Assembly: GCA_034432595.1 (NCBI GenBank)
Contig: DAOUBT010000004.1
Coordinates: 18,892-82,891, forward strand
Length of the DNA: 64,000 nucleotides
Direction of reading: 5' to 3'
Origin: Anaerolineae bacterium
GTDB lineage: Bacteria > Chloroflexota > Anaerolineae > B4-G1 > SLSP01
This document shows, piece after piece, positions 1 to 26,098 of the stretch (positions within the stretch are counted from its first letter, which is position 1; each line of letters starts with the position of its first letter). A program made the position numbers and the translations under genes. The notes below the pieces were generated by a model. That model saw only the letters and a program-made list of their open reading frames with translations, was not told the DNA's origin and ran no database searches.

Positions 1-1
1 G

Positions 2-3000
2 AACACCATCTTCGCCACCAACACGGCGGGGACATTGGGCGATGCGCTTTACAGCGCCATGGCGTACCAGCCGGACTACAATGCCTTCTTCCCGCAGGCG
101 GGAGCGGTCAACCCGGAGGTGGTGCCGGGGCCGCACACCCTGTACACCGACCCGAAATTCATCAATCCGACGGCGGGCGATTTGCATCTCGCCAACGATT
201 CGCCGCTGTTTGACCGTGGCGACCCGCAGACGGCGCTGGATCACGACTTTGACGGCGACCTGCGCCCGGCGGATCAGGGCTACGACATCGGCGCGGACGA
301 GCGGCGCGGCTGCTGGGCCAAGAACATGCGTACCGGCATCATTTACGCCAACCCGCAGCTTGCGGTGTACGCCAGCCAGACCAACGACGAGATTCGCATC
401 TCGGTGGGTGAGTGCCGGGGCGTGCACCCGCTCACCGTGGGCGGACAGGTGCTGAGCCAGACCCTGCACATCACGCGCAACCTGACCCTGAGCGGTGGGT
501 GGACGCGCGACTTCACGCAGCAATACGCCGGACCGTTTGGCTACCCGGATGCGAGTGAGCGCTCCACCACCCTCCTGCCGCAGGGCCTGGGCCGCGCGCT
601 GCTCATCACCAACACGACGATGATCACCATCGAACGCGTGCAGATGGTGGGTGGTAACGCGGCGGGCCTGGGAGGTGCCGCCCTGCCCAACGCGGGCGGA
701 AACCTGCTCTATGCCAGCGCTAATGGCCTCTTCACCCATGTGGACTTCTACCAGGGCGAGGCCGCTTACGGTGGCGCCCTTTACAAGGTGAGTGGTCGCC
801 TGAACCTGGCGGATAGCTGGAATGGCAACAACACGGCCCTGACCTATGGCGGTGCGCTGTATAATGCCAGCGGTCCGCTTACCGTCACGGTTGTCGGTAC
901 GGGCAATCAGGCCATTGCTGGAACCTGGTACAATGGCAACATGGCCGGGGCACGCGGCGGCGCGATCTACGTCGCGGGCGGCAGCGTCATCCTGGAGGAT
1001 GGCTCCGCCGAGTACAAGCGCAACACAGCGCCTTCGGGCGGCGCTATCTACGTCGCACCGGGCGGCACGTTGACGGTGACCGCGGGCAGCTTCTACACCA
1101 ACACGGCGGCGCAGCTCGGCGGCGCGCTCTACAATGCCGGTCAGGCCATCCTGCATGGCGGCGCGTTCTACGATAACTGGGCCGGGCAGGATGGTGGCGC
1201 GTTCTACAACGCGGGCACGGCCTCGCTCGACCTGGGCAACCGTTTCTACTGGAACCATGCCGAACGCAACGGCGGTGCGATTTACGCAGGCGGCACCTTC
1301 CTCGCCCTGCGAAACAACGTGATTTACATCAACACGGCGCAGCGGGGCGCGGGCATCTACCTCGCCGCGGGCGCGCCTAACATCTGGCACAACACCTTCC
1401 ACCAGAACACGGCCAGTGTGGAAGGGGGTGCGATTTATGTCGGTACGGGCGCGGGCAGCGCGCTGCAAATCAAGAACAACATCTTCAGCGAAAACAATGC
1501 GCCGCAAGGTAAGGCCATCTTCTCCAACCGCGGTCAGTTGGATTACAACGACTACTGGCCTACCGATGCCTCCAATCAGGTGGTCGGCGGTGTCGGCGTG
1601 GGCAGCAACAACCCCAATGCCGATCCGCTCTACGTCAAGCCGGGGGTGACGCAACAGTTCCACGGCGATTTCCACCTGCAGGACAAGTCCACCCTGATTG
1701 ATGCGGGCGTGGAGCTGGGCGTGATACGCGACATGGATGGCGATCCGCGTCCGAGCAACGCGCGGCCCGACATCGGCGCGGACGAGGTCATGAACTGTCT
1801 GGTCAAGAACCCGCGCCTGAACAAGCTTTACGGACGCCTCGTCATGGCGGTGAACGAAGCGCAGGACGGGGATACCCTGCGCATCGCCGAGGGGGTGTGC
1901 TACGAAAATCTCACCCTGAACAAGGCGCTGACCCTGGATGGCTCGTGGGATAAAGTCTTCAGCAGCAAGCTGGAGTATATCGCCACCTTCATTGACGGGC
2001 AAAACGTGGGGCGCGTGGCGCGCGTGACCAGCCCGAACGTCGTGCTGCGCGATTTGGGCCTGCGCAAGGGTTCGACGCAGGATAACGGCGGCGCGGTGCT
2101 CCTCGAAAGCGGCAGTTCACTCAGCCTGAACAACGTCACCATCCGCGAAAGTCAGGCGGCGGGCAATGGTGGCGGGCTGTACGTGAGCGGCGGCGCCACG
2201 CTCGACCTGGTGGATACGGGCTTCTCCGACAACATCGCACAGGGGAACGGTGGTGGCCTCTACCTGGCCGATAACAGCACCGCTGATCTCTACGCCTTAG
2301 CGGCCTACCGCAACACGGCCACCCTCGGCGGCGGCGTGTACATCGCGCCCAATGCACAGGTACAGGGATTCGATTCCGCCGTGTTCGGGCAGAACGTGGC
2401 GACCAGCAACGGCGGCGGTCTGTACAACGCCATGCCCAACCTGGAGCTTATCAACACCCGCTTCTACGAGAACAGCGCGCAGGCCGGCGCTGGCATCTAC
2501 AACACGGGAGCCAGCGCCCGCGTACTGCACGGCACCCTGCACTACAACGTAGCCACCCAACAGGGCGGCGCGCTCTACAACCTCGGCGCGGGCACGGTCG
2601 TGAGCGCGAGCATCGTCGCCTCTAACACGGCCAGCACCGGCGCCGGCATCTACGGCGCCACCAACGTGACCGTGGATTACGTGGTGCGCTTCGCCAACGA
2701 CTTCTATCAGGCCAATGGCGCGCACATCAAAAACGCCGATCCGCGCTTCCTGCCCAACAGCGGCCACCTCCTCTACACGTCGCCCGCCATTGACTACGTT
2801 CCCAGCGCGGCCTCCGAGGTGAACTGGGACTATCAGGGCATCCCGCGTCCGCAAATTTGCGCCAAGGATGCCGGCTACCGTGAGTATTACGTCGCCAAGC
2901 GCCTGCTCACCTGGGTGGATACGCCCAATCCGCCCCTCAACTTCGCCGATCCGGGCGTTCCCGTCACCACGACCTTCAGCCTGCGCAACGACAGCGAATA

Positions 3001-6000
3001 CTGGCTCGATCCCAGCGATTACCGCACCAGTCTGGGCCCGGGCACGGGGTACACCGAGACGATTCAAATCACCCTGGGAAGCCTGCAGCTCGGCTGGAGC
3101 CGCATCGTCAGGGTGGATAACGCGGCCTACGTGAACATCGCTCCCAACGGGCGCAGCGCCGGCTTCCAGGTCGGGCCGGGCAAGACAGCGATCATCTACG
3201 TCGTGACTACGCCGCCGCCGGGCACGTTCGCCAGAATGGAAGACCGCCTTACCCTCGGTGTGAATGCCACGCTGTGCGACCGCGACCCGATGGAGCTGAG
3301 CAGTCCGCAGGCCATCGTGCGCGTGCGCGAAGACGACAGCTTCCTCATTGGGCCGGATAATTTCGGCGCGGCGCTGCCGGGGCAAACCATCACCTACACC
3401 CACCGCATCACCAACACCGGCAACTTCACGCAGAGCTTCCGGCTCTTCCCCAAGGCGGGCTTCTACGGCGTCGGACGCATCATCTCGCCCACCGAAGACC
3501 TGTTGCCGCTCAACCTGGGGCCGGGCCAGAGCTACCCCATCACGTTTGCGGTGACGATTAACCCTGAAGCCGCGGGCGGTCTGGTGGACGTGACGAGCAT
3601 CATCGGCCTGAACCAGAATGCGATGCAACGCGCCGCCGCCAACAACACCACCATCAGCTACACCACCGGCGTGCGCTATGTCAGCCCGTCCGGGACCGAC
3701 TCGCTGGTGAATGAAACCATCGGCAGTCAGGACCCGAACGCGGTAGACCTGCCGGACAACAACTGCACGCAGCCGCAGGTCGCCCCGTGCTACAGCCTCG
3801 CCCACGCGCTGCAACAGGCCGCCGCGGGTGATGAAATCCGCTTAGCTACAGGCGTCTACACGCAGGTGATGACGGCCACCTATCAGGCTCAGGTCATCAC
3901 GCAAACCCTGTATGTCGCCAAATCCGTGACGCTGCGCGGCGGCTACGACGCGAGCAACTGGAACAGCACCGACCTGATCACGCCCACCACCCTGCTCAAC
4001 CCGCAAGGGCAGGGCCGCGCGCTGGTGATCCCGGAGGGCGTTACCGTCCACGTGGACCGCATCGCCTTCACAGGTGGACAGGCGGATGCGGGCGGTGCGC
4101 TTTACAACGCGGGCACACTCAAGCTTACCAACAGCCTCTTCTATGGCAACAGCGCCGCCACCGGCGCAGCGCTCTACACGCGCGGCACGCTTAACGCCTG
4201 GAATAACACTTTCTACAACAACTCTGCTGGCACAGGCTTTGGTGGTGGGATGTACATCCTCGCTGGCGAGGCGAACGTGCGCAACAGCATCTTCGCCGCT
4301 AACACGGCCGGGACGGGCAGCGCCGTGCATCGAGCTGGCGGAACGTTCAACTCCGACTACAACCTGTACTGGCAGAACGTCGTTTCCGGTGCGAGCACCG
4401 GCGCTAACGACAAAGTCAATGTAGACCCGCAGTTTGTGGCCACAGCGACCACGCCGCCCAACCTGCGCCTGCGCTCCACCTCGCCGGCGCGCGATGCGGG
4501 CGATCCGGCCACAGACTTCAGCACCTTCCCGCGCGATCTGGGCAACGCCTCGCGGCGCATGGGGCCGCGCGTGGACATCGGCGCTTACGAATACGTCATC
4601 AACATTGGCGCGCGCCTCACGCCGAACTACACGCGCGTCCTGCCCAAGGGCACGGTCATCACCTACACCCACACCCTCACCAACACCGGCGAGATGACCG
4701 ACACCTTCACCCTGAGCTTCAACTCCAGCCTCGGTTGGGGCCAGTTGCTCACGCCCGGGCCCTTCACACTGCCCAGCGGCGCGACAGCTCAGGTGCAGGT
4801 GCGCGTGACGGTGCCGACGGGGAACGTGGGCGGCTTGCAGGACGTGAGCGTCATCACCGCCACCTCACAGGCCGACCCGACGAAGTTCGCCTCCGCGACG
4901 GATAAGACCACGGCGGAATTCATCCCCGGCGTGACCTTCACCCCGAACCACAACACGCCGAACGCCGCGCCGGGCAGCGTCATCGTGTACGAGCACACGC
5001 TCACCAACACCGGCGACGGGCGTGACACCTTCACCCTGAGCTACGAGAGCACGCAGGGTTGGGCTTCCGCGCCGGTACCCGCCAGCGTCACGCTCAACGC
5101 GGGCATGAGCACGACGGTGCGCATCACGGTCACGGTGCCCGCCGGCGCGCTGCAAGGTATGCAGGATACCACGCGCATCACCGCCACATCCGCCTTCAGC
5201 CCGGCGGTACAGGCCGGTGTGGTGGATGTGACCAGCGTAGGCGGCGCGGCGGGTCTGGAGCTGACGCCGACTTCGTACCAGCGCGTGGTGGCATCCGGAA
5301 CGCCGGTTACCTACACCTTCACCGTGACCAACACCGGCAACGCAGCGGATACCATCTCCTTCTCGGCCATCAGTTCGCTGGGCTGGTCCTACGCCATCAA
5401 TCCGCCGAGCCTGTCGCTGAATGCGGGCGCATCCGGACAGGTACAGCTCGTGCTGACTGTGCCGGCCAACAGCGGCGGACAAACCGATGTGACGACCTTC
5501 ACAGCCAGCTCGACCAACACCCCCGGCCTCACCCGTCAGGCGACGGTGACATCCATGGTGCAACCGCAGGCCGGGGCTGAGCTGACCCCGCCCACTCAGA
5601 GCAAGACGGCGCAGGCGGGGAGCACGGTGACGTACACCTACACCGTGCGCAACACAGGCAACGCCAACGCCGCCATCACGCTCGATAAAGCGAACTCGCA
5701 GGGCTGGAACGTCACGCTGAATCCGACGGTGATTGCGAGCCTCGCGCCCGGAGCGAGTCAGACCGTGGTGCTGACAGTGAACGTCCCCGCCACAGCGGAA
5801 CAGGGCGCGACCACCGTCATCACGGCCACAGCGAGCGTGCCCAACGCGCCGAGCGCACGCGCCACCGCCACCGCGCTCACCACCATCCCCCTGCCCGGCG
5901 GCCCCTTGCTGGAGCCTGACCACCCCAACGGACAGGCGACGCCCGGCAGCGTGGTGACGTATGAGCACACGCTCACGAACACCGGCAGCGTGACGGATAC

Positions 6001-8704
6001 CTACACCCTGAGCTACCGCAGCAGTCAGGGCTGGGTGGTGACCTTCGATCCGGCAGGGCCGATTACCCTGGGCGCGGGGGCGAGCCGTACCGTGCTCGCC
6101 ACGCTGAACGTGCCCTCGAACGCGACGCCCGGCACGGTGGACACGACCGTCATCACCGCCACGGCGCAGAGCGACGCGCAACGCTTTGACACGGCGACGA
6201 ATGTGACCACGATTCTCAGCAGCGTTGCGCCGGTGCTCGATCCGGATTACGCGCGCAGCCTCAAGCGCGGAGAGAGCACCGTCTACACGCACACGCTCAC
6301 CAACCCCGGTACCGCTGCCCAAACTTACGCCATCACGATCAGCAGCACGCGCGCCTGGGCGACGTTGCTCACGCCCGCACAGGTGAGCGTGCCGGCGGGC
6401 GGCAGCACACCGGTTGCGGTGCGCGTCACCGTCCCAAGCACGGGCGTCACGCCGGGGATGCAGGACGTGACGACCGTCAGGGCTACGGTGCAGGGCGCGC
6501 CGACGCTTTACGCGCAGGCGGTGGATACGACCACCGTCGCACCGAGCGCCGGGGTGCGCTTCACACCCAACCGCAGTGCCAACGGGGATCCGGAGCAGGT
6601 CATCACGTACACCCACACCATCACCAACACGGGTGATGTGGCGGATACCTTCAGCTTCAGCTACGTCAACAGTACCGCCTGCGCCACCTGGACGGTGAAC
6701 GTACCCGCGCCGGTCACCTTAGCGCCGAACGCGGCACAGGAGGTACAGGTCACGGTGACGATTCCGCCTCTGGCGCCCGCCAACCTGGTGTGCGAAACCA
6801 CGGTCACTGCGGCCTCGCAGCTCGACCCGACCGTGCGCGCCAGCGTGAAGGACACGACCACGGTGAACACGTACCGTGACTTTGTGCTTTACCCGCTGAG
6901 TAAGGAGCGCAGCGCACGGCCCGGTCACATCATGACGCAGACGCTGGTGCTCACCAACACCGGCAATATCCCGGATACATACCTGCTCAACGTGGCGGAT
7001 ACTCCCAACGGCTGGGCCACCTTGACACCAGCCACATCCGTTAGCCTGCAGCCAGGTCAGGTAGCAACCCTCACGCTCACAGTGCAGGTGCCGGCGAGCG
7101 CCCAGAACGGCGCCACACATACCAGCTCGGTGATGGTGACCTCTCAGAGCGATACTACCATGACAGCGACGGCCATCATCACCACCTACATCGTCGAACC
7201 GCCGGGCGTGGCGCTTACTCCTGACCGCACGAACCGACGCGCAGCCGGAGAGACGGTGAATTATATCCACACCATCACGAACACCGGCGCGGCCCGCGAC
7301 GTGTTCAACATCAGCGCGGTCAGTGCCCACGGTTGGCCGGTACAGGCGCCGCAGAGTGTCGTGCTCGCTGCAGGGGAAAGGAAGTCGCTTATCATCGCGC
7401 TCACCATCCCCATGGATGTGATCAGCGACACGGTGGACGTGATCACGCTTACGGCCAGTTCGGATGCGGATGCCAGCGTCTCAGCAACGGTATACGACAC
7501 GACGACGGTGGCGATGCGCGCGGCGATGAGCTTCACGCCAGCTTTCCAACAGGGCGAAACCTGGCCTTCGCAGCCCATCCTCTACACCTTCGTGCTCACC
7601 AACACCGGCAACTATACCGATACCTTTGACCTGAGCAACAGTGTCGCACCCACGGGATGGACGGTCACGGTGGTGCCAAACGTTGCCACGCTGGGCATGA
7701 ATCAGGCGGTGCCGGTTAAGGTGACGGTCACACCGCCGGCAGGCTCAGGCGGCCTACACCATACGGTTACCGTCACTGCGACCTCACGCGCGAGTCTGCC
7801 GGGTGGTCCTGCGTTGATCAAGACTGCCCCTGTGGCCGTTCAGGCGGAGACGTGGGTGAAATTCACGCCGGGCGTGCAACTCAGTCCGGGCGTCCACTCC
7901 ATCGCCACACAGGGAGAGGTGGTCACCTACACCCATACGATCACCAACACCGGCACAGGTGTGGATACCTTCGACCTGAGCGTGGTCTCGTCCCATAACT
8001 GGCCTATCCTGTACCGTCCGCCAGAGCAAATCACCCTGGCCGCGGGTGAGGCGCACGCCTTCAGCGTGGTGCTGAAAGTGCCACAGACAGCTTACAGTGG
8101 GACGTTGGACATCCTTACCATTACCGCACGCTCGACGAGTTTCACCTCCACGGTGGCCACGGCGGAAGACCGTACCCTTGTCCAGGGCACGCCGAGCTTC
8201 CGGCTGTACCTGCCTGTCATCTACCGCGGTTATCCGCCTGACGGCGTGAACTTGATTGTGACGGGCATCCAGATTGGCCCGTTGGACACTCAAGGGACGG
8301 CGGTCATCACCGTGACCACGATGAACATCGGCAATCAACCGGTGGCCTACGGCAACAATTTCTACGTGGACCTGTACATTTTCTATGAGGACCCCTACAT
8401 GCCACCGCCACTGACGGCGGGGAACCGGTACTGGGGCGTGCAGGGCCACTGGTATCAGCCGGGAGCATCGGTCGTCCTGACCACAACCTACTCCTTCCCT
8501 GTGGGCGCCAACTGGACTTTCTACGCTCAGGTGGACACCGATAAACACGTGGTTGAATGGAACGAAAACGATAATGTTTACGGTCCATTGACGCGCTATC
8601 TGGCGCCGCCCGGCGCGGGTATCAACAACCTGAACATGATTCCGCAGATGCCGCGTCCGGTGCCGTTGACCCAGCCGCGTCCGGTGCCGCCGCTCCAGCC
8701 ATAG
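2..8704 (+). CDS. Giant surface/adhesin-like protein, 5'-partial (longer than 2889 aa): right-handed beta-helix Pmp-like repeats (FYxN...GGA[ILV]Y), about 22 DUF11-type repeats (TYTHTLTNTG...DTFTLS), a C-terminal CARDB-like domain and a Pro-rich tail
   Basis: The reading frame is open from position 2, with no stop upstream of the first Met at 35. Dozens of GGALYN/GGAIYV repeats fill the N-terminal 1400 aa. There are then about 22 tandem units of roughly 100 aa with the conserved pattern TYTHTLTNTG-x-DTF-LS...GW...VTVTVP...DVT-ITATS. The C-terminus reads PVPLTQPRPVPPLQP. Confidence 0.85.
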   Translation, partial: NTIFATNTAGTLGDALYSAMAYQPDYNAFFPQAGAVNPEVVPGPHTLYTDPKFINPTAGDLHLANDSPLFDRGDPQTALDHDFDGDLRPADQGYDIGADERRGCWAKNMRTGIIYANPQLAVYASQTNDEIRISVGECRGVHPLTVGGQVLSQTLHITRNLTLSGGWTRDFTQQYAGPFGYPDASERSTTLLPQGLGRALLITNTTMITIERVQMVGGNAAGLGGAALPNAGGNLLYASANGLFTHVDFYQGEAAYGGALYKVSGRLNLADSWNGNNTALTYGGALYNASGPLTVTVVGTGNQAIAGTWYNGNMAGARGGAIYVAGGSVILEDGSAEYKRNTAPSGGAIYVAPGGTLTVTAGSFYTNTAAQLGGALYNAGQAILHGGAFYDNWAGQDGGAFYNAGTASLDLGNRFYWNHAERNGGAIYAGGTFLALRNNVIYINTAQRGAGIYLAAGAPNIWHNTFHQNTASVEGGAIYVGTGAGSALQIKNNIFSENNAPQGKAIFSNRGQLDYNDYWPTDASNQVVGGVGVGSNNPNADPLYVKPGVTQQFHGDFHLQDKSTLIDAGVELGVIRDMDGDPRPSNARPDIGADEVMNCLVKNPRLNKLYGRLVMAVNEAQDGDTLRIAEGVCYENLTLNKALTLDGSWDKVFSSKLEYIATFIDGQNVGRVARVTSPNVVLRDLGLRKGSTQDNGGAVLLESGSSLSLNNVTIRESQAAGNGGGLYVSGGATLDLVDTGFSDNIAQGNGGGLYLADNSTADLYALAAYRNTATLGGGVYIAPNAQVQGFDSAVFGQNVATSNGGGLYNAMPNLELINTRFYENSAQAGAGIYNTGASARVLHGTLHYNVATQQGGALYNLGAGTVVSASIVASNTASTGAGIYGATNVTVDYVVRFANDFYQANGAHIKNADPRFLPNSGHLLYTSPAIDYVPSAASEVNWDYQGIPRPQICAKDAGYREYYVAKRLLTWVDTPNPPLNFADPGVPVTTTFSLRNDSEYWLDPSDYRTSLGPGTGYTETIQITLGSLQLGWSRIVRVDNAAYVNIAPNGRSAGFQVGPGKTAIIYVVTTPPPGTFARMEDRLTLGVNATLCDRDPMELSSPQAIVRVREDDSFLIGPDNFGAALPGQTITYTHRITNTGNFTQSFRLFPKAGFYGVGRIISPTEDLLPLNLGPGQSYPITFAVTINPEAAGGLVDVTSIIGLNQNAMQRAAANNTTISYTTGVRYVSPSGTDSLVNETIGSQDPNAVDLPDNNCTQPQVAPCYSLAHALQQAAAGDEIRLATGVYTQVMTATYQAQVITQTLYVAKSVTLRGGYDASNWNSTDLITPTTLLNPQGQGRALVIPEGVTVHVDRIAFTGGQADAGGALYNAGTLKLTNSLFYGNSAATGAALYTRGTLNAWNNTFYNNSAGTGFGGGMYILAGEANVRNSIFAANTAGTGSAVHRAGGTFNSDYNLYWQNVVSGASTGANDKVNVDPQFVATATTPPNLRLRSTSPARDAGDPATDFSTFPRDLGNASRRMGPRVDIGAYEYVINIGARLTPNYTRVLPKGTVITYTHTLTNTGEMTDTFTLSFNSSLGWGQLLTPGPFTLPSGATAQVQVRVTVPTGNVGGLQDVSVITATSQADPTKFASATDKTTAEFIPGVTFTPNHNTPNAAPGSVIVYEHTLTNTGDGRDTFTLSYESTQGWASAPVPASVTLNAGMSTTVRITVTVPAGALQGMQDTTRITATSAFSPAVQAGVVDVTSVGGAAGLELTPTSYQRVVASGTPVTYTFTVTNTGNAADTISFSAISSLGWSYAINPPSLSLNAGASGQVQLVLTVPANSGGQTDVTTFTASSTNTPGLTRQATVTSMVQPQAGAELTPPTQSKTAQAGSTVTYTYTVRNTGNANAAITLDKANSQGWNVTLNPTVIASLAPGASQTVVLTVNVPATAEQGATTVITATASVPNAPSARATATALTTIPLPGGPLLEPDHPNGQATPGSVVTYEHTLTNTGSVTDTYTLSYRSSQGWVVTFDPAGPITLGAGASRTVLATLNVPSNATPGTVDTTVITATAQSDAQRFDTATNVTTILSSVAPVLDPDYARSLKRGESTVYTHTLTNPGTAAQTYAITISSTRAWATLLTPAQVSVPAGGSTPVAVRVTVPSTGVTPGMQDVTTVRATVQGAPTLYAQAVDTTTVAPSAGVRFTPNRSANGDPEQVITYTHTITNTGDVADTFSFSYVNSTACATWTVNVPAPVTLAPNAAQEVQVTVTIPPLAPANLVCETTVTAASQLDPTVRASVKDTTTVNTYRDFVLYPLSKERSARPGHIMTQTLVLTNTGNIPDTYLLNVADTPNGWATLTPATSVSLQPGQVATLTLTVQVPASAQNGATHTSSVMVTSQSDTTMTATAIITTYIVEPPGVALTPDRTNRRAAGETVNYIHTITNTGAARDVFNISAVSAHGWPVQAPQSVVLAAGERKSLIIALTIPMDVISDTVDVITLTASSDADASVSATVYDTTTVAMRAAMSFTPAFQQGETWPSQPILYTFVLTNTGNYTDTFDLSNSVAPTGWTVTVVPNVATLGMNQAVPVKVTVTPPAGSGGLHHTVTVTATSRASLPGGPALIKTAPVAVQAETWVKFTPGVQLSPGVHSIATQGEVVTYTHTITNTGTGVDTFDLSVVSSHNWPILYRPPEQITLAAGEAHAFSVVLKVPQTAYSGTLDILTITARSTSFTSTVATAEDRTLVQGTPSFRLYLPVIYRGYPPDGVNLIVTGIQIGPLDTQGTAVITVTTMNIGNQPVAYGNNFYVDLYIFYEDPYMPPPLTAGNRYWGVQGHWYQPGASVVLTTTYSFPVGANWTFYAQVDTDKHVVEWNENDNVYGPLTRYLAPPGAGINNLNMIPQMPRPVPLTQPRPVPPLQP

Positions 8705-8727
8705 CGCGCGGCGAGGCAAGTCAGGCA

Positions 8728-8764
8728 GGCCAGTCTGTTGGGATAACACCCAACAGGCTGGCCG
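8728..8764 (+). terminator. 15-bp stem-loop directly after the giant CDS; no U-tract, so a transcript-stabilising or weak terminator hairpin
   Basis: ggccagtctgttggg-ataacac-cccaacaggctggcc, with one G-U pair in the stem. Confidence 0.3.
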
Positions 8765-9036
8765 CCCGATATCGAGTCGCCCCATGCGGGTTCAGACATC
8801 AGTAAGGGACCGCGCTCCCACCCGGAGCAGCGCCGGGCATCGCTCCGCCGGGTTTTCAACCGACGATCCTTAACCTTGCGGGCATCCACAAGCTGATCAG
8901 ACGTGGCGGGCGTTGATGAGCACTTGACTATTTAGCCATTTCGGATACTTTTAAGAGGGATGGGTCAACGTCAGCGCGACGTTAACCAGACCTGAAATTG
9001 TACCATGATGGTATCCAACCAATCAAAGGGGGATTT

Positions 9037-9498
9037 ATGCGCAAACTCTTAACCTGGATCGCCTTATCCCTTTTGCTGTTACTGGCGCTTCCGTCCATGT
9101 TGGAGGCCCATCCAGTCTACCAGATCACGCCAACCGGCACACCGCGAGATACGCCCACGCCCATCGGCACACCCACCACGCCGCCGCCGTCGCCGACCAC
9201 GCCGCCACCGACTACGCCGCCGCCGTCGCCGACCACGCCGTCGCCGACCACGCCGCCACCGACCACGCCAACGACGGCGTCGCCCAGTCCGACGAATACG
9301 TCCACCAACACGCCCACTCGCACGCCGACCAAAACGCCGGGTTCATTGCCCTGGACTGGCCTGAGCCTGAACGGTGGCCTTTCCTGGCTGACGGCGGGCC
9401 TTTCCGCCGTGCTGCTGGTGACGCTGCTGATTTCGGTGCGCGTGTTGCGTCATCGTTATTCCCGAAACCCGGAGGAAACCCAAACGGATAAGGATTAG
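9037..9498 (+). CDS. Small secreted PT-rich protein with a C-terminal LPXTG-type sorting signal (LPWTG, then a hydrophobic helix, then RVLRHRYSR)
   Basis: GGGGG ribosome-binding site 5 nt upstream of the ATG at 9037. N-terminal signal peptide MRKLLTWIALSLLLLLALPSMLEA. Pro/Thr-rich linker (PTTPPPSPTTPPP...). C-terminus carries LPWTG, a transmembrane helix and a positively charged tail. Confidence 0.7.
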   Translation: MRKLLTWIALSLLLLLALPSMLEAHPVYQITPTGTPRDTPTPIGTPTTPPPSPTTPPPTTPPPSPTTPSPTTPPPTTPTTASPSPTNTSTNTPTRTPTKTPGSLPWTGLSLNGGLSWLTAGLSAVLLVTLLISVRVLRHRYSRNPEETQTDKD

Positions 9499-9504
9499 TC
9501 ACTT

Positions 9505-10653
9505 ATGCCGACTCAGGACCTGCGCTCTCTCTACCTCCTCCGCCCCGACGTGATCTTTCTCAATCACGGGTCCTTTGGTGCCTGTCCGCGTCCGGTCTTT
9601 GAAGCTTACCAGGCCTGGCAACTGGAGCTGGAACGTCAGCCGGTTGAGTTTCTGGGGCGTCGGCATGATGAGCTGTTAGCCGAAGCGCGCCGCGCCTTAG
9701 GTGCCTACGTCAACGCCGACCCTGACGACCTGGTGTTTGTGCCGAATGCAACGACTGGCCTGAATATTATCGCGCGCTCCATTCCCATCGGCCCAAATGA
9801 TGAGGTGTTGGCCACCGATCAGGAATACGGCGCTATGGATCGTATGTGGCGTTTCACCTGCCTGCAAAGCGGTGGACGCTACGTCCGACAGGCGGTTCCG
9901 CTGCCCATTCAGGATGGAACGGATATTCTGGAGGCGGTATGGAACGGCGTGAACCGCAACACGCACATCCTGTTCATCAGTCACATCACGTCCAGCACGG
10001 CCATCATCAACCCGCTCAAATCCTTGCTGGCCTGCGCACGGGATTTGGGCATCATCACCATTGTGGATGGCGCTCATGCGCCGGGGCAGATCCCGCTCAA
10101 TTTGCGGGAATTGGGCGCGGATTTTTACGTGGGCAATTGTCACAAATGGATGATGGCCCCCAAGGGCGCGGCTTTCCTGTATGCCCGCAAGGAAATGCAA
10201 CCTTTGCTCGATCCGCTGGTGGTGAGCTGGGGTTGGGAGCCGGAAAAGCCCGGCCCATCGCGTTTCATAGACCTGCATCAGTATCAGGGCACGCGCGACA
10301 TCTCGGCTTACCTGAGCGTGCCGGAAGCCATCCGCTTCATGCAGGAGCACAACTGGCCGCAGGTCCAACAGGAGTGCCATCTTTTGCTGCGCTATGCACG
10401 GGAGCGTATCACCGCCCTGACGGGGTTGCCCCCGTTGACGCCCGACACACCGGATTACTACGCGCAAATGGCGGCTTTCCCGCTCCCACCCTGCAACGCT
10501 GAGACGCTGAAGCAACGCCTTTACGACGATTACCGGATTGAGGTACCCATCATCAAATGGAATGGACAGACGTTGCTGCGCGTTTCCGTGCAGGCCTACA
10601 ACACGCAGGCGGATATAGATGCGCTCATTGACGCGCTAACGGTCCTGTTGTAG
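9505..10653 (+). CDS. Aminotransferase class V family PLP enzyme (isopenicillin-N epimerase / cysteine desulfurase-like)
   Basis: 382 aa. N-terminal LNHGSFG motif; PLP-lysine context ...GNCHKWMMAPKGAAFLY; matches the class V fold overall. Confidence 0.75.
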   Translation: MPTQDLRSLYLLRPDVIFLNHGSFGACPRPVFEAYQAWQLELERQPVEFLGRRHDELLAEARRALGAYVNADPDDLVFVPNATTGLNIIARSIPIGPNDEVLATDQEYGAMDRMWRFTCLQSGGRYVRQAVPLPIQDGTDILEAVWNGVNRNTHILFISHITSSTAIINPLKSLLACARDLGIITIVDGAHAPGQIPLNLRELGADFYVGNCHKWMMAPKGAAFLYARKEMQPLLDPLVVSWGWEPEKPGPSRFIDLHQYQGTRDISAYLSVPEAIRFMQEHNWPQVQQECHLLLRYARERITALTGLPPLTPDTPDYYAQMAAFPLPPCNAETLKQRLYDDYRIEVPIIKWNGQTLLRVSVQAYNTQADIDALIDALTVLL

Positions 10654-12540: not shown

Positions 12541-12759
12541 GTAGAACCGTGGGAGTTTCTAAGTATGGTCCGGCTTTTAGCATCGCTCCCCCACCCTGTC
12601 TCAAAAAGCCCTGGTATTTTCCAGTGTCTTCTGCAGTGTGCGGGTTTATTCGACTAAACTCTGACCAACAAGAAACCGTTTTAGCCCAACACGGTGACAC
12701 CCCGATACCCATACCCGAAGCGCCCTGCCTGCGCTCCGTTTGTCTGTAAGGAGGTGGTC

Positions 12760-15096
12760 ATGCGCAAAGTCAGGCTTATCCTGTTCGCCCTGATACTCCT
12801 GCTTTGGATGGAAGGGTTCTCCATCCCGGCACGCGCACAGGCTGATGATGACGCGGCGCTGCTGGAGCGCTATGCCCCGGTCTTCTATTTCCATCCAGAT
12901 GAGTACTTCCGCCCCCAACCCGTGGAGGTGATGCTGCCCGAAGCGCGCCTGCGCCGCAGCTCCCCCTTCTGGTTCGATGTGAACGTCCTGGCTTCGCTCA
13001 ACCTGCGCGATTTCTTAAACCTGCCACCGGAAAAGAGCTTCTTCCTCGACGTGTGGTATGGGAGCGAGGGGAGCGCCGCCACCGATTACACGGCCCACCG
13101 CAGTTATTACCGCGCGCTCCTCAGCCCGGAGGCGGGCGGACCTGAGCCTGCGGTGTACGGACGGGTCCACCGCGACGCGCAGGGCCACATCACCGTGCAG
13201 TATTGGGCGTTCTATTTCTACAACGACTGGTTCAACAAACACGAAGGCGACTGGGAAATGCTACAGGTCATGCTGGACCCCGACGGCACGCCGCGCTGGG
13301 TGGTGTACAGTCAGCATCACGGTGGAACGCGCCGCGCCTGGGAGGATACGCCGCGCTACGCACAGACTCATCCCATGGTGTACGTGGCGAAGGGATCGCA
13401 CGCTAATTATTTCGCCGGCGATGAGAGTTATCCCAACGGCATGACGATTGGCAAGACGCGCGTGGAGCTGCTCGACCGCACCGGTAGCGTGGAGCAACTG
13501 CGTCCGCGCGTCATCCGCCTGCCGGAGCGCGCGGAAGTGGTCGCCAATCCGGCAGCCTGGCCGGGCGCCGAATGGCTGCCTTACCGCGGGCGTTGGGGGG
13601 AAAACGCGCCTCAGGGCGATTTCAGCGGTCCCTATGGGCCAGCGGATAAGGGCACGCAATGGGACGATCCCTACGCCTGGGGCATGGCTCAACCGCTGGA
13701 TGTGGAGGTGTGGTACGCGCACCGCCTGCGCGTGTTCGCCTCTGTGCCAATCAGCGCCACGCTCAATACCGCGCCCGGCGCTTCCCTCGCCGGCGTCGAG
13801 ACGCTCAGCCACGGTCTCATCCTGCACAGCGACCCGCCGGAAGAGGGCGTTGTCATCACCTTACAGGCCGCGCCTGATACCGAGATGGATGTTAGCGCGA
13901 CCTGGCCCGAACGCAGCGCGGCGCGCGTCACGCACTGGAGGTTCGCCAACGTGCGCTTTGATGCCACCGGCACGGCCCTGCTCTTCCTGGGGCCCACATC
14001 CCCCAAAATTGTAGTAGGGCAGATGAGCTACCTGCCCACCACGAGCAGCAGTAACAGCGCCACGTGGGATACTCCCGACCTGGTGTGGATGGGAAGCCTG
14101 CTTACCGCGCAAGAGGTGGCGGTGGGCTTCGGTTGGATTCTCGTCGGCAGCATCCTGCCCGCCCTGGTGCTGCTGGGACTGGTGTATAACCTGGATTATT
14201 ACGAACGCGAACCGAAGCGGCTGGTGTTCTTTACGTTCGTGTGGGGCGCTGTGCCCGCGGTGCTGGTGCTCGTAGGGGCGGCTATCTTCTTCCGCCTGCC
14301 CACCTCGCCCCTGACACGCGAAGCGCATATCGCGTTACGCGCCGGGTTGCTCAGCGCAGCAGCGCAGGAGCTGATCAAGGGCGCAGCGGTGTTTTTCATT
14401 TTCTGGCGCTACCGGCGCGAGTTCGACGGGGTGTTCGACGGCATCGTTTACGGTGCGACGGTGGGGTTCGGCTTCGCCATGATGAGTCAGTTGCTCCGTC
14501 AGCTCAGCGATTTTGTGCTGTGGGGCTTTTCCAGCATGACGTTGGAGACGTGGGCGCAGGGGGTGCTCTTTGCCCTGCATCAGGCCATGTACAGCGCGTT
14601 TTTCGGCGCGTCGCTGGGTTGGGCACGGCTTTCTAATGACCGCAAGGCGCGGGTTTACGTGCCGGTTTTGGGGATGGTGGCCGCCATCGGCGCGCACGGG
14701 TTGCATTTGCGCTGGCTGAACAGCCTGCAAGGGCTGACGCCGGCTTTCGTCGTGCTTTCGCTGGCAGGGCTGTTGTTCACGGTGGGGGTAGGGATATGGG
14801 CTTTGTATCGTCAGCGCGTCTGGCTGGAGGCCATGCTCCCCCAATGGGAGAGCCTGGGGGTGAGCGCAAGTTTGTTGAAGCCGGGACGACGCTGGTGGTA
14901 TGAGACGCGCGCGCTCTTCCGCCATGGGCCGCGCGCCTGGCGCGCGCTGCGGCGCTTCCATAGCTTGCTGATGGAGTGGGCTTTCAAGGCGGAACAGGCA
15001 CGACTCCGCCCCGATGAGGCCGCGCTGGCGCAGGAGGCAGAACAGCTACAGGCGCGCCTGCTCGCTTTGTGGCCGCGCGTCAAGGGATACTTGTAG
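12760..15096 (+). CDS. Fusion protein: N-terminal secreted domain of unknown function (about 400 aa, HEGDWE motif) plus a C-terminal PrsW-like multi-pass membrane protease domain
   Basis: GGAGG 7 nt upstream of the ATG at 12760. Signal/TM sequence MRKVRLILFALILLLWM. C-terminal half has at least 7 transmembrane helices with PrsW-type motifs: QELIKG (EExxK-like), FALHQAMYSAF (FxxxH) and HGLHLRWLN (HxxxN). Confidence 0.65.
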   Translation: MRKVRLILFALILLLWMEGFSIPARAQADDDAALLERYAPVFYFHPDEYFRPQPVEVMLPEARLRRSSPFWFDVNVLASLNLRDFLNLPPEKSFFLDVWYGSEGSAATDYTAHRSYYRALLSPEAGGPEPAVYGRVHRDAQGHITVQYWAFYFYNDWFNKHEGDWEMLQVMLDPDGTPRWVVYSQHHGGTRRAWEDTPRYAQTHPMVYVAKGSHANYFAGDESYPNGMTIGKTRVELLDRTGSVEQLRPRVIRLPERAEVVANPAAWPGAEWLPYRGRWGENAPQGDFSGPYGPADKGTQWDDPYAWGMAQPLDVEVWYAHRLRVFASVPISATLNTAPGASLAGVETLSHGLILHSDPPEEGVVITLQAAPDTEMDVSATWPERSAARVTHWRFANVRFDATGTALLFLGPTSPKIVVGQMSYLPTTSSSNSATWDTPDLVWMGSLLTAQEVAVGFGWILVGSILPALVLLGLVYNLDYYEREPKRLVFFTFVWGAVPAVLVLVGAAIFFRLPTSPLTREAHIALRAGLLSAAAQELIKGAAVFFIFWRYRREFDGVFDGIVYGATVGFGFAMMSQLLRQLSDFVLWGFSSMTLETWAQGVLFALHQAMYSAFFGASLGWARLSNDRKARVYVPVLGMVAAIGAHGLHLRWLNSLQGLTPAFVVLSLAGLLFTVGVGIWALYRQRVWLEAMLPQWESLGVSASLLKPGRRWWYETRALFRHGPRAWRALRRFHSLLMEWAFKAEQARLRPDEAALAQEAEQLQARLLALWPRVKGYL

Positions 15097-15198: not shown

Positions 15199-15756
15199 AT
15201 GCGTCAGGTGTGGAAATGGCTGCTTTTGAGTGTGCTCTTGGGAGCGGGAATGGGTTTGCTGGTCAAAACGCCGGTCAAGGCCTGTTCCTGTATGCCGCCG
15301 GGCGATCCGAAAATAGAGTTGGAACAGGCCACGGCAGTTTTCAGCGGGCGCGTGTACAGCATGGAGGCTTCGGGCGGGGCGCTGTGGGTGCATTTTGAGG
15401 TCTCCGAAGTGTGGAAGGGGCCTTATCAATCCCTGATCACCGTGCGCACGGCAACCGATAGCGCCGCCTGCGGCTACACATTCGCAGAAGGCGTGGAGTA
15501 TCTTGTGTATGCCAACGGGGATACCAATGATTTACAGGTGAACTTGTGCAGCCGCACCCGTCCGCGCATGGACGCCGCCGAGGATATAGGAATCCTTGGA
15601 CCGGGGACACCTGTCAGTCAAATGGAAGGAAGCCCGGCGAAGAACACTTTTGATCCCAACCGGGTGTTGGCGCCGGTGGTGGGGATCCTCAGCGGGGCGA
15701 TTGTGGTGGGCATTTTGCTCGGCGGGTTATTGGATTTCCGGCCCGTGGTACGGTAA
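15199..15756 (+). CDS. TIMP/NTR-like (tissue-inhibitor-of-metalloproteinase-like OB-fold) secreted protein with a C-terminal membrane anchor
   Basis: GGAGG ribosome-binding site. Signal peptide ending VKA|CSCMPP, giving a Cys-x-Cys N-terminus as in TIMPs. TIMP N-domain landmarks: VFSGRV, VWKGP, AACGY, EYLVYANGD, LQVNLCS. C-terminal hydrophobic helix. Confidence 0.7.
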   Translation: MRQVWKWLLLSVLLGAGMGLLVKTPVKACSCMPPGDPKIELEQATAVFSGRVYSMEASGGALWVHFEVSEVWKGPYQSLITVRTATDSAACGYTFAEGVEYLVYANGDTNDLQVNLCSRTRPRMDAAEDIGILGPGTPVSQMEGSPAKNTFDPNRVLAPVVGILSGAIVVGILLGGLLDFRPVVR

Positions 15757-20164: not shown

Positions 20165-20662
20165 ATGCCATTCTGGTCACGCCGGAAAAAAGAGGGGGCG
20201 CCCGCGGAGGCGCGTATGTTGCAGCTCGAAGCGGAGTTACAGGCCTTGCGCCTGACGTTGGAAGAGCGTGAGGCGGAACTGCGCAGGTTACGCGCTCAGT
20301 GGGAACAGGAACGCGCGCGCAGCACGGCACAAGTGGAAGCGCAGGTGCAGGCGCAGATGGCGGCGCTGATGGAAGCCGCGGCCCCGCCTGTGGCGCAGGT
20401 GCTATTGCAGGGGTCGCTCATCGAAGCGGGGCAAGAGGTGCGGGCGCGGGACGTGTGGCTGGTGGTGCAGCGTCTGGTGCGCGTCCTGGAGGCGCACGGC
20501 CTGGAGGTGAGCACGCCCATCGGCACAGAGGTGGCCTTCGATCCGGACCGGCATCAGCCCCTGAGCGGGAGTTGCCCTGCAGGGACGCGCGCGCGCGTGC
20601 GGCTGCCGGGCCTGAGTTACCGCGGACGGCTCATCCACAAGGCGGGCGTCGTTCAGGAGTGA
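20165..20662 (+). CDS. grpE: GrpE-like nucleotide exchange factor (short, 165 aa)
   Basis: GGAGGG ribosome-binding site. N-terminal coiled coil (LQLEAELQALRLTLEEREAELRRLRAQ). C-terminal beta-domain motifs FDPDRHQPLS and YRGRLIHKAGVVQE. Confidence 0.7.
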   Translation: MPFWSRRKKEGAPAEARMLQLEAELQALRLTLEEREAELRRLRAQWEQERARSTAQVEAQVQAQMAALMEAAAPPVAQVLLQGSLIEAGQEVRARDVWLVVQRLVRVLEAHGLEVSTPIGTEVAFDPDRHQPLSGSCPAGTRARVRLPGLSYRGRLIHKAGVVQE

Positions 20663-20716
20663 AGGGGCGTGGCAACACCCTTTAAGGTCAAAACGCTCAG
20701 GCAGGGATAAAAGGCC

Positions 20717-22303
20717 ATGGCAGGACGTTTGGGGATTGATTTTGGCACGTCGAATACGGTGGTCGCGCAGTGGGATGCCCTGGCGAAGGAGGGAAAGCCG
20801 CTGCTCATCCCGGAATACAGCCATTTCTACATGCAGGGCGGAGAATCCATCGCCGTCGTGCCCTCGCTCATCCACTATACAACGGACGGGCGGCGCTGGA
20901 TTGGCGAGCAGGTGCGACAGCAGCAATTGCTGCAAGCGCCGGGCACATTCCGCTGGATGAAGCGCTACATCACGCAGCGCAGCCCCTATCGCGTGCGCGT
21001 GGGCGAGCGCGACATCACCCCCTTCGAGGCAGCGCAGGATTTCCTGACAGCGGTGTTGCTCTTCGCTGGTCAGGAGGTGGCGTTGGAAGATGAGGAAGTG
21101 GCCTTCAGCGTGCCGGTGGAGGCCTTTGAGGACTACGAGGATTGGCTGACGGGCGTGGCACAGCAGGCCGGGATGCCGCGCTTCCGCCTGATTGACGAGC
21201 CATCAGCGGCGGCGCTGGGCTACGGCGCCCCCATCCGCCCCGGCGACGTGTACCTCATTTTCGATTTTGGCGGTGGGACGGTGCACGCGGCGATGGTGCT
21301 CATCGAAGAGGCGGAACATGCAGATAGCGGCCGCCGTTGCCGCGTGTTGGGCAAGGCCGGCGCGGATTTGGGCGGTGCGGTGGTGGATCAGTGGCTCTTC
21401 ATGGATATTCTGCGCCAACAGGGCCGCTCCGAAGGGGATGAGGTGGTGCGGCGCGTGAGCAATCTGCTGCTGGTGGAATGCGAGCGCGCCAAGATTCAGC
21501 TTTCCACACAGGAGCGGGCGTCCATCAGCGTGGTGGATCCGCAAAGTGGGGCGGCTTTAGGGGCGGATTACAGCCGCGCGCAATTCGAGAGCCTGCTGGA
21601 AGCGAACGGCGCCTTCACCACCATCGAGCGGACGGTGCGCCGCGCGCTGCACGAAGCCTACGAGCGCGGTTACGACGAGGATCGCATCAAGGCGGTGTTG
21701 ATGGTGGGCGGCAGCAGTCAAATTCCGGCCATCCAGAGCCTTTTGCAGCGCAGTTTCGGACGCGAGCGGGTCATGCTCAACCGCCCCTTAGATGCTATCG
21801 CCCGTGGCGCAGCCGCTTTCGTTGCCGGCACGGATTTCTACGACCACATTCAGCACAGCTACGCCATCCGCTACCTGAACCGCGAGAAAAACGAGCACGA
21901 TTATTGGACGATTGTCGAACGCGGCACACCCTATCCGGCAGCGCAGGTGGCGCGCCTGACGGTCAAGGCGTCGTATGATCAGCAGACGCATCTGGGTGTG
22001 GCGATTTTCGAAGTGAGCGAGACACGTCAAAGCGCCGCGGGCGCGTTCGAGCTGGTGTTCGATCCGAGCGGCGCGGCGCGGTTGGCCCCCGTCAGTGCCG
22101 AGGCCACGTATCGCCGCCAATATTTCTGGATGAACGAAAAGCAGCCCACCTTCCTGGTGGCCGATCCGCCCGCGCAACAAGGGGAAAAATGTTTTGAAAT
22201 CGTGTTCAGCATAGATGCCAACAAGCGTTTGCTGCTCACCGCGCGGGATTTGCGCACAGGTAAGCTGGCCTACAAGGATTATCCGGTGGTGAAACTGACA
22301 TAA
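20717..22303 (+). CDS. Hsp70-family protein with a complete actin-like ATPase domain but a truncated substrate-binding region (528 aa)
   Basis: IDFGTSNTVVA (phosphate-1), DEPSAAALGYG (connect-1), IFDFGGGTV (phosphate-2), VLMVGGSSQIPAIQ (adenosine motif). Only about 140 aa follow the nucleotide-binding domain. Confidence 0.85.
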   Translation: MAGRLGIDFGTSNTVVAQWDALAKEGKPLLIPEYSHFYMQGGESIAVVPSLIHYTTDGRRWIGEQVRQQQLLQAPGTFRWMKRYITQRSPYRVRVGERDITPFEAAQDFLTAVLLFAGQEVALEDEEVAFSVPVEAFEDYEDWLTGVAQQAGMPRFRLIDEPSAAALGYGAPIRPGDVYLIFDFGGGTVHAAMVLIEEAEHADSGRRCRVLGKAGADLGGAVVDQWLFMDILRQQGRSEGDEVVRRVSNLLLVECERAKIQLSTQERASISVVDPQSGAALGADYSRAQFESLLEANGAFTTIERTVRRALHEAYERGYDEDRIKAVLMVGGSSQIPAIQSLLQRSFGRERVMLNRPLDAIARGAAAFVAGTDFYDHIQHSYAIRYLNREKNEHDYWTIVERGTPYPAAQVARLTVKASYDQQTHLGVAIFEVSETRQSAAGAFELVFDPSGAARLAPVSAEATYRRQYFWMNEKQPTFLVADPPAQQGEKCFEIVFSIDANKRLLLTARDLRTGKLAYKDYPVVKLT

Positions 22304-22496
22304 CAAGAACCCACGGTCAGGGTTCGCCAGGGCCTGGACTTGCAAGGCCCATCGGGGAAGGCAAGGACTTGCGCGGCTGGATGCCAGCCTGCTACTCCAA
22401 GCAGGCAGCTTAAAGCTGTACCTGAGCGGCAACAGGCCCGGAGCCAGTCGGGGTTAAGACAGCGCCCCGGCCCCTTAATCAGCACAAGGAGGTAAC

Positions 22497-22880
22497 ATGT
22501 CCCATTTTACTCGCGTTAGAACGCGCCTGAAGGAAAAGGCCTACATCATAGCTGCGCTGCAACAGATGGGATACCAGGTCCACGATCAACGGGGAAGCGT
22601 GCGCGGCTTTGGAAACAAACAGGTCGAGGTCGAGTTTAGCGTTCGCCCCCGTCCGATGAGCTACGCCATCGGTTTCCGCAAGACGGGAGAAGGGTACGAC
22701 ATCATCGCGGACTGGTGGGGCGTGCGTGGGGTCAGGCAAGCCGAGTTCACGCGCAAACTGACGCAACTTTACGCCTATCAAGCCGCAAAGCAAAACCTCG
22801 AAGCGCAGGGCTTCACGTTAGCGGAAGAGCAGGTAGACGCGGAGGGGCGCATCCATCTTCTCCTGCGCCGCATGGTTTGA
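22497..22880 (+). CDS. DUF1257 (Ycf35-like) protein
   Basis: GGAGG ribosome-binding site. N-terminal MSHFTRVRTRL... and overall length and pattern typical of the Ycf35/DUF1257 family. Confidence 0.75.
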   Translation: MSHFTRVRTRLKEKAYIIAALQQMGYQVHDQRGSVRGFGNKQVEVEFSVRPRPMSYAIGFRKTGEGYDIIADWWGVRGVRQAEFTRKLTQLYAYQAAKQNLEAQGFTLAEEQVDAEGRIHLLLRRMV

Positions 22881-25826: not shown

Positions 25827-25914
25827 AAGACCCCAATAACTCCCAGAATGATGGGATTATTATACCGATTTTAAGCGAAGAGACAAAACTATCAAAAGAG
25901 ACAAGGTCGAACGG

Positions 25915-26098
25915 GTATCCCAGGCTCTGCCTGGGGAGCTGGCCAGCCAAACACAAGTTGCGTCCCCCCAGGCTTTGCCTGGGGACTCGCCAGCCAGAGG
26001 CTGGCAGTACGCCGTGTACCCCCAGGCTCTGCCTGGGGACAGCCAAAGGCTGGCGGTACGCCGTGTACCCCCAGGCTCTGCCTGGGGACGGCGCCACA
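25915..26098. repeat. Array of hairpin-forming tandem repeats (units CCCAGGCTCTGCCTGGGG and GCCAGCCAGAGGCTGGC), inverted relative to the 30146-30748 array
   Basis: The repeats are visible directly in the sequence. Their reverse complement aligns with the units of the second array (CCCCAGGCAAAGCCTGGGGGTGACGGTGTACCGCCAGCCTCTGGCTGGCG). Confidence 0.8.

Follow-up and report, generated by a model that had tools for sequence, protein, structure and literature searches.

A small Pro/Thr-rich protein with a candidate sortase-type signal encoded beside a giant surface protein in Anaerolineae

Little is understood about the envelope of Chloroflexota cells, those of Anaerolineae above all, or about the way in which giant surface proteins are attached in these filaments. 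The question is raised by a 64,000-nucleotide (nt) stretch of an Anaerolineae bacterium (GenBank assembly GCA_034432595.1, contig DAOUBT010000004.1, positions 18,892 to 82,891 of the forward strand), called the window here, in which a short open reading frame (ORF) at positions 9037 to 9498 of the plus strand lies downstream of the gene for a giant surface protein. A first-pass annotation of the window described the product as a protein of 153 amino acids with a signal peptide, a Pro/Thr-rich stretch, the motif LPWTG, a hydrophobic helix, and the segment RVLRHRYSR, took these parts for a classic tripartite sortase substrate signal, and suggested a sortase-dependent surface display system. We asked whether this frame is a gene, whether its C-terminal motif is constrained, and how its product relates to the giant neighbor. 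The translation agrees with the protein described, the observation is confirmed, and the sortase interpretation is partly supported. In the reading that we favor, with a confidence slightly better than even, the small protein is a sortase-type, wall-anchored Pro/Thr-rich stalk of a conserved surface module. It would represent a new, mostly unannotated family that carries a known type of signal, and what could turn out to be novel is the conserved module of three genes.

A conserved small gene that gene callers miss

We assembled seven orthologous sequences by recovering the plus-strand frame in every related locus; the set comprises the window protein and those of loci L089, L087 (GCA_900175155.1), L088 (GCA_053494975.1), L001/L002, L003 (a partial sequence from a metagenome-assembled genome [MAG] classed by GTDB as Anaerolineae), and L090 (JGI metagenome). 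Measured against the window protein, overall identity is as low as 53 to 69%, with the Pro/Thr-rich stretch free in both length and sequence, and in the conserved parts at the two termini most substitutions hit the third codon position (for example, 13:3:20). Within GSLPWTG itself, synonymous differences affect the codons of Ser, Leu, Thr, and Gly. The ribosome-binding site (AAAGGGGGA, positions 9025 to 9033 of the plus strand, 3 nt 5′ of the ATG) keeps the form A[AG]GGGGGA, and it and the ATG are unchanged across five loci. In the L089 strain, which is 99% identical, the Pro/Thr-coding repeat carries an in-frame expansion of 27 nt (window positions 9190 to 9300 versus L089 positions 25100 to 25240). 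On the translation, the seven orthologues, and the codon-position bias, positions 9037 to 9498 (plus strand, stop codon included) are a real gene.

Public gene calls place an antisense ORF of 64 to 104 amino acids at this site instead of the small gene in four independent assemblies (five loci). These calls lie on the minus strand inside the Pro/Thr-coding repeat (window positions 9117 to 9332, L083 1613 to 1807, L087 22879 to 23115, L088 20860 to 21174, and L089 25032 to 25253, with L084 as a further locus), and they speak for the alternative that the plus-strand frame is open by coincidence alone, in DNA rich in GC and repeats, with the antisense ORF as the genuine gene. This alternative is countered by the third-position bias and the synonymous changes inside an invariant motif, by the invariant ribosome-binding site and ATG and a conserved promoter-like box (see below), and by the conserved signal peptide and transmembrane helix and the in-frame strain indel. 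In addition, the small gene is called in an NCBI record (P0001) and in one Logan assembly (P0002, L001), the only such calls among close relatives, and two distant counterparts that share its architecture, in loci L092 and L094, were called as well. As read from these alignments, the comparative data refute the idea that the frame is not a gene, and we attach almost no probability to it. We also considered whether the small gene might have arisen as a 3′ fragment split from the giant gene; the small gene has its own promoter box and ribosome-binding site and encodes its own signal peptide.

Because gene callers substitute the antisense ORF in most assemblies, the small protein is nearly absent from databases, with one strong cluster in 1.84 billion representatives and two clusters in a set of 5.8 billion sequences. 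Looking up its exact sequence gave no recorded positions, and its clusters yielded neither names nor accessions. No match came from a scan of species-representative genome contigs that was built on the full-length alignment and relied on N-terminal patterns; the window's genome lies outside this set. Since the callers drop the family, surveys of LPXTG proteins in Chloroflexota will undercount it. To a specialist the finding will be plausible more than surprising, and it provides a clean case in which to test sortase-type anchoring in Anaerolineae while flagging this gap in gene calling. Small Pro/Thr-rich genes of GC-rich Chloroflexota look systematically under-called, and the contigs of L001/L002 and L003, which are three independent assemblies, stop within or just 5′ of the small gene.

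The precursor is laid out as MRKLLTWIALSLLLLLALPSMLEA, HPVYQ..., the Pro/Thr-rich stretch, GSLPWTG (residues 102 to 108), LSLNGGLSW, LTAGLSAVLLVTLLISV, and RVLRHRYSR NPEETQTDKD, with all parts encoded on the plus strand. It has two hydrophobic peaks, at residues 2 to 24 and 114 to 139. The first marks a signal peptide (residues 1 to 24, MRKLLTWIALSLLLLLALPSMLEA; positions 9037 to 9108), judged by pattern and hydropathy, whose N-terminus MRKL..W...LPS.L[EQ]A is shared by the orthologues and which is predicted to be cut after LEA, in front of His. The spacer that follows (residues 30 to 101; positions 9124 to 9339) contains 28 Thr and 27 Pro among its 72 residues (76% Pro plus Thr), with the conserved TPRDTPTP near its start. 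The first-pass annotation had put this stalk at about 90 residues; the Pro/Thr-rich stretch is there, at the shorter length of 72 residues, or 79 when counted from the predicted cut to LPWTG. The motif itself (residues 104 to 108; positions 9346 to 9360) lies within the block TPGSLPWTG (residues 100 to 108), and the 9-residue linker LSLNGGLSW joins it to a transmembrane helix of 17 residues (residues 118 to 134, LTAGLSAVLLVTLLISV; positions 9388 to 9438), which falls inside the second Kyte-Doolittle peak and whose hydrophobicity is kept in the orthologues. In the cytoplasmic tail (residues 135 to 153; positions 9439 to 9495), the basic RVLRHRYSR is followed by the ten polar or acidic residues NPEETQTDKD, giving 19 residues with a net charge that is roughly neutral. 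Pfam and NCBIfam searches found no folded domain in the small protein.

Constraint on the C-terminal motif and the case for a sortase-type signal

The first-pass annotation had allowed that a motif not conserved in orthologues, together with the lack of a sortase in the genome, would count against it; we found that TPGSLPWTG is invariant in all seven sequences, as are R135 and R138 after the helix. The distance from the motif to the C-terminus is exactly 50 amino acids in the window protein and 52 to 57 amino acids in its orthologues, whose tails are 19 to 26 amino acids long and variable in sequence beyond this R..R. More-distant counterparts occur at two loci whose giants are only 35 to 40% identical to the window giant. 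One, in L092 (GCA_963992675.1; positions 20481 to 21086), is a 201-amino-acid protein encoded directly downstream of the giant, with YTLPRTG, LFDSFLPW, a helix, and RFVRWRSENVHFINIWRNDSKD. The other, in L094 (JGI metagenome; positions 4354 to 4923), is a 189-amino-acid protein encoded two genes upstream of the giant, with ...SIPSTG, FGVGGW, a helix, and RRLRLGKKGRTERSDLYGGPGKHRHP. Both have a signal peptide, a Pro/Thr-rich stretch with a PR-type motif, and the same build as the window protein. Thus, three lineages with differing flanks keep [LI]PxTG, a linker of 6 to 9 residues that closes with Trp, a helix, and a cluster of Arg residues. Since the flanks diverge while [LI]PxTG is kept, [LI]PxTG is the constrained element, and its retention across three lineages makes a chance occurrence of LPWTG untenable. 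A motif that is kept while its X position is free is the pattern that would be expected of a sortase recognition signal. Judging from the substitution patterns, the signal peptide, the Pro/Thr stalk, the motif, the transmembrane helix, and the basic tail are under purifying selection.

We also scanned about 1.4 Mb of fetched loci in six frames for the pattern [LIV..]P.[TSA]G followed by a hydrophobic run and a basic tail. The matches were the small-protein family, the two distant counterparts, and one SdrD_B protein, the rest being a few evidently spurious or non-secreted ORFs.

In the mechanism that we propose, the precursor would be exported via Sec and cut by signal peptidase after Ala24. 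This would expose on the outside an extended spacer of about 79 residues, mostly Pro and Thr and probably O-glycosylated, which would reach a length of about 25 nm as a full polyproline II helix (about 0.31 nm per residue, an estimate). The helix near the C-terminus and the Arg-rich stop-transfer segment would hold the protein in the membrane, and a sortase-type transpeptidase would cut between Thr107 and Gly108 and join Thr107 to peptidoglycan, leaving a short, wall-bound Pro/Thr stalk. Such a stalk would join a module with a beta-helix/immunoglobulin (Ig)-repeat protein of about 4,400 to 4,900 amino acids and a Flp-type pilin-like protein, and it may serve the giant as a docking or spacing element. 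With one short protein, one motif, and one predicted cleavage site, the small protein offers an easily tested handle on sortase-style anchoring in the phylum.

The surroundings of the gene bear on whether a wall is available for such a linkage. In the strain of the window and the two relatives nearest to it (L087 to L089), murB, a gene of peptidoglycan synthesis, is found just upstream of the module, and peptidoglycan is therefore probably made. The window also encodes a protein with G5 and DUF348 (G5-linked ubiquitin-like) domains (positions 49083 to 50642, minus strand), an architecture typical of peptidoglycan-associated Gram-positive proteins; together with murB, it hints at a Gram-positive-like wall. 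In L093 (GCA_016716065.1, JADJXA010000007.1, a Chloroflexi MAG), a 214-amino-acid SdrD_B protein (positions 22047 to 22691, minus strand) ends with LPDSG, a transmembrane helix, and HWRQHRA. This tail and murB favor, indirectly, a sortase-type pathway in the group.

Several observations weigh against a sortase substrate. Pfam and NCBIfam scans of about 45 window ORFs revealed no sortase (PF04203), the whole genome not having been searched, and a six-frame scan for the TLxTC active-site signature in the window and all fetched loci, which took in 6 to 10 kb on each side of every related module, revealed no sortase ORF. Housekeeping sortases are usually unlinked to the genes for their substrates, so the lack of one nearby is weak negative evidence. 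The display system that had been suggested is thus borne out by the constraint on the motif and by a pairing with the giant that extends beyond close relatives, and it is left without a sortase in the window or the related loci. The literature that we searched contains no experimental sortase anchoring, and nothing on sortases, in Anaerolineae; a remark from 2006 credits Chloroflexus with one sortase-like protein (PMC1586193).

The fit to curated LPXTG models is also poor. The window protein does not match TIGR01167 or PF00746 even at an E value of ≤10, and it matches NF053819 (EF2685/EF0750 family) weakly, with 16.4 bits against a cutoff of 47; the L092 counterpart reaches 13.6 bits against TIGR01167 (LPXTG_anchor), for which the cutoff is 15.9. 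Among the controls, P0018 (402 amino acids) passes both TIGR01167 and PF00746, and P0007 passes TIGR01167. In an exhaustive profile search, the weak matches were mostly small proteins with a signal peptide, a Pro/Thr-rich stretch, and an LPQTG, LPLTG, LPRTG, VPTTG, or LAPTG tail. The tail closest to that of the window protein, TPGSLPQTG...ARVMRRRNHSDDEE, belongs to P0028, which lies on a 941-nt contig and fails the models, and failures of this kind mean that the curated models miss part of the small Pro/Thr-rich class. Model failure lowers the claim to LPXTG membership and is not decisive.

The tail and the region around the motif raise further points on the same side. Textbook sorting-signal tails have roughly 5 to 10 amino acids; the motif here stands 50 to 57 residues from the C-terminus, and the tail of 19 to 26 residues has a polar or acidic end. 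Under the "last 50 aa" rule for LPXTG position (PMC12617251), the window motif is a borderline case. Of the signal that had been called classic, the motif, the helix, and the Arg-rich start are present, and the long, roughly neutral tail with its acidic extension makes it less classic than that label says. In close orthologues, residues past the motif (G..SW.T.G) are conserved too, and these would be unneeded in a cleaved-off remnant. A JGI metagenome scan turned up no further protein with the extended motif. A profile search with the C-terminus only, run against a collection of 5.8 billion proteins, gave 88 candidates, none of which scored; because it also missed the family's own members, this negative carries little weight.

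The sortase absent from all DNA examined, the unmatched LPXTG hidden Markov models, the length of the tail, and a conservation that runs past the motif into the linker and helix would all suit a stable, single-pass type I membrane protein that presents its Pro/Thr spacer from the membrane and keeps its long polar tail in the cytoplasm, and in which the juxtamembrane [LI]PxTG...W block serves partner binding, a glycosylation cue, or another protease, with no sortase involved. The gene for a PrsW-family membrane protease, which keeps its place 3 kb downstream throughout the close relatives, points in this direction as well. However, PrsW synteny is confined to close relatives and is not seen in L092 or L094, and the tail beyond R..R is not conserved. 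The sole element common to the three lineages in this region is [LI]PxTG placed 6 to 9 residues before a transmembrane helix and an Arg cluster, an arrangement for which we know of no other function. We regard a membrane protein of this kind as the main alternative, if a somewhat unlikely one, and continue to prefer the wall-anchored stalk.

Signals of other types gave no better fit. No NCBIfam model for exosortase-, archaeosortase-, or rhombosortase-type signals (PEP-CTERM, PGF-CTERM, GlyGly-CTERM, IPTL-CTERM, YLP-box, etc.) matches the window protein at an E value of ≤10, and the same C-terminal sorting models find nothing in the L092 and L094 counterparts at an E value of ≤1. No EpsH/exosortase or rhomboid family appeared in Pfam and NCBIfam scans of the window ORFs.

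The giant neighbor, gene order, and transcription signals

Positions 1 to 8704 (plus strand) encode the C-terminal 2,889 amino acids of the giant surface protein, which ends in ...MPRPVPLTQPRPVPPLQP. Its full length, taken from P0053, is 4,872 amino acids, with an N-terminal signal or anchor, a Pel9A-like beta-helix, DUF5123, and dozens of Ig-like repeats; the Pfam domains within the window are Beta_helix, DUF5123, FixG_C, NPCBM_assoc, Ig_VWA7, DUF7507, and CARDB. The first-pass annotation had placed the small gene about 330 bp downstream of a repeat protein of more than 2,889 residues that has no such signal. We measured a gap of 332 nt, and the full-length giant indeed has no LPXTG tail; nor does any of 120 giant homologues have an LPXTG/transmembrane C-terminal signal. 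Without LPXTG, the giant cannot act as the acyl donor for a sortase, which rules out a tether to the small protein by the usual chemistry; if the giant is anchored via the small protein at all, the attachment must be non-covalent or of a different chemical kind.

The giants end in other ways. A Pro-rich motif of the PR.TPT type stands near the C-terminus in 59 of the 120 homologues, while in 19 the sequence closes with [IV]YLPLVLR(xx), which NF050076/NF053834 list as a "YLP-box putative sorting motif" (P0065, P0066, P0068, P0085, P0126, P0127, P0131, P0134, P0135, P0140, P0153, P0171, and P0172 are among them). Two YLP-box sequences that were tested scored 11.8 and 12.7 bits against the cutoff of 10 of this ultrashort model. 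The YLP-box never co-occurs with a PR.TPT-type tail. Some giant homologues are named "choice-of-anchor Q domain-containing" by NCBI. Every small partner carries PR[DNP][TS]PTP 10 to 15 residues past the predicted signal-peptide cut, with PR.[TS]PT present in all lineages, an echo of the giant's tail that may have to do with the way in which the two are linked. The pairs of small-protein motif and giant tail are TPRDTPTP (positions 9139 to 9162) and MPRPVPLTQPRPVPPLQP (positions 8650 to 8701) in the window, QPLTQPRPSPTP and GPRPTPTSLP in L092, and TPRPTPT and VPRPTPTPIP in L094. No NCBIfam model matches the Pro-rich motif PRx(T/S/V)P(T/L).

Wherever the giant side is assembled in close relatives (the window, L083/L084, L087 to L089, and L090; the contigs of L001/L002 and L003 end before the giant side), the small gene is flanked by the giant and an aminotransferase gene. 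L092 and L094 likewise have it in the cluster of the giant. No small partner stands at the locus of a giant that is more distant still (L093, 29% identity). A Flp/Fap-type prepilin-like gene encoding 133 to 156 amino acids, with KGQG followed by LVEYALILVLIAIV, lies directly upstream of the giant in L089 (positions 9408 to 9839), L087 (7405 to 7833), L088 (5535 to 5969), L092 (5178 to 5648), and L094 (5133 to 5534), which covers all lineages in which this side could be seen; in the source genome of the window, its place is shortly before the first position of the window. Its product has the processing-site signature G/LVEYALIL, the slash marking the site, and then a Gly/Ser/Cys-rich extension of about 100 amino acids. 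As far as gene order can tell, its conservation supports a functional link between the small protein and the giant and points to no specific mechanism. One specific form of such a link, which we consider rather doubtful, would be a hitherto undescribed Anaerolineae-type Chloroflexota surface module of three genes (the Flp-like gene, a giant with a "PRPxPxxP" tail, and a Pro/Thr-rich [LI]PxTG protein with a matching "PRxTPTP" motif at its mature N-terminus) in which the small protein is the giant's dedicated wall or membrane tether. The anchor signal would then have moved to an adaptor gene, and the Pro-rich motifs would dock or share a modification. Separately, a prepilin peptidase gene (Peptidase_A24) lies about 8 kb downstream in L001.

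An LPXTG-like signal encoded near a large adhesin-like protein and a pilin-like gene might also mark a sortase-assembled pilin or basal subunit, polymerized or covalently joined to the giant; a minor pilin-like subunit had been among the first suggestions for the small protein. We found no folded CnaB/Ig-like domain in it, no YPKN-type pilin motif, and no E-box, and the single Lys near the motif (Lys99, in TKTPG) is His or Asn in the orthologues. There is no class C sortase adjacent, the giant has no LPXTG, and the neighboring pilin-like gene is of the Flp/type IV kind, processed by prepilin peptidase rather than sortase. The missing folded domain and the unconserved Lys speak against the earlier suggestion, and we judge a pilin role of any such kind to be very unlikely.

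The gene for a class V aminotransferase (positions 9505 to 10653, plus strand; Pfam Aminotran_5) begins 6 nt 3′ of the small gene, and this spacing is 3 to 11 nt in all close orthologous loci. A hairpin stands right after the giant stop codon (positions 8724 to 8766, plus strand); it is terminator-like and has no U tract. The fold of positions 8705 to 8790 has a minimum free energy of −51.9 kcal/mol (z = −6.6, with 0 of 200 shuffles as stable), and GC-rich hairpins occur at the corresponding place in L088 and L090. Between the hairpin and the small gene lies a promoter-like box, TTGACT-N16-TACTTT (positions 8924 to 8951, plus strand), which reads TTGACT-N16-TA(C/A)(T/C)TT across loci and would serve as the small gene's promoter. 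Five orthologous loci share the block CTTGACTATTTA.C..TTTCG..TA..TT without change, and the intergenic DNA around it is unconserved. The strong hairpin, the small gene's own promoter-like box, and the tight spacing to the aminotransferase gene show that the small gene and the giant are separate transcription units. Five to six tandem TTGAC(G/T)A-like repeats stand in front of the box in L001.

The aminotransferase gene is probably cotranscribed with the small gene, and we do not count it in the surface module; aminotransferase orthologues at 65 to 67% identity have no small gene upstream. Its best matches are in Anaerolineae MAGs (86% identity), followed by proteins at 65 to 67% in Anaerolineales and Caldilineaceae, and the named giant homologues come from Anaerolineae, Anaerolineales, or Chloroflexi. 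The genome had been called Chloroflexota-like from its sequence, and these matches agree.

Relation to described families and other genes of the window

The closest described parallel is with Gram-positive LPXTG proteins (TIGR01167/PF00746; housekeeping sortase classes A, E, and F). Like them, the small protein has a signal peptide, [LI]PxTG with a helix and an Arg-rich segment, and a low-complexity, Pro-rich, wall-spanning spacer before the motif, and the X position and flanks vary between lineages. Unlike them, it falls below both models and has no functional passenger domain, its motif and tail depart from theirs in position and length as described above, and its host belongs to the Anaerolineae, in which sortase anchoring is unproven. 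By this analogy, the window protein would be, in form, an LPXTG substrate reduced to a wall-spanning spacer and an anchor.

Two families of small proteins, NF058583 ("LAXTG motif-containing small protein") and NF053819, resemble it in having fewer than about 200 amino acids and little beyond a signal peptide, a low-complexity stretch, and a sortase signal, and the related hit P0003 weakly matches both. In contrast to these families, all scores here are far under the cutoffs (47 bits for NF053819 and 65 bits for NF058583), the window motif is LPWTG rather than LAXTG, and the taxon is another one. Neither family is known to us for a conserved link with a gene of the Flp type and a giant of the beta-helix/Ig kind. 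The third comparison is with the choice-of-anchor Q and YLP-box proteins of Chloroflexota, whose names or box the giant's homologues carry. The small protein has neither, and here the anchor-like signal is on a separate small gene and not on the large protein.

The PrsW-family gene mentioned above (positions 12694 to 15096, plus strand) encodes an 800-amino-acid protein with a C-terminal intramembrane protease domain and an N-terminal ectodomain of about 500 amino acids that is faintly Vps62-like. All close relatives share this position of the gene, after which comes a conserved gene for a 185-amino-acid protein without a family match (positions 15199 to 15756). We considered this protease or the L001 prepilin peptidase as a possible processing enzyme of the small protein and set this aside as a leading idea, since the synteny is limited to close relatives and does not extend to L092 or L094. 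Farther downstream, positions 24297 to 43820 hold a dense block of signaling genes, with multi-GAF/PAS histidine kinases of 1,161, 840, and 1,686 amino acids, two GAF-adenylate/guanylate cyclases, and response regulators.

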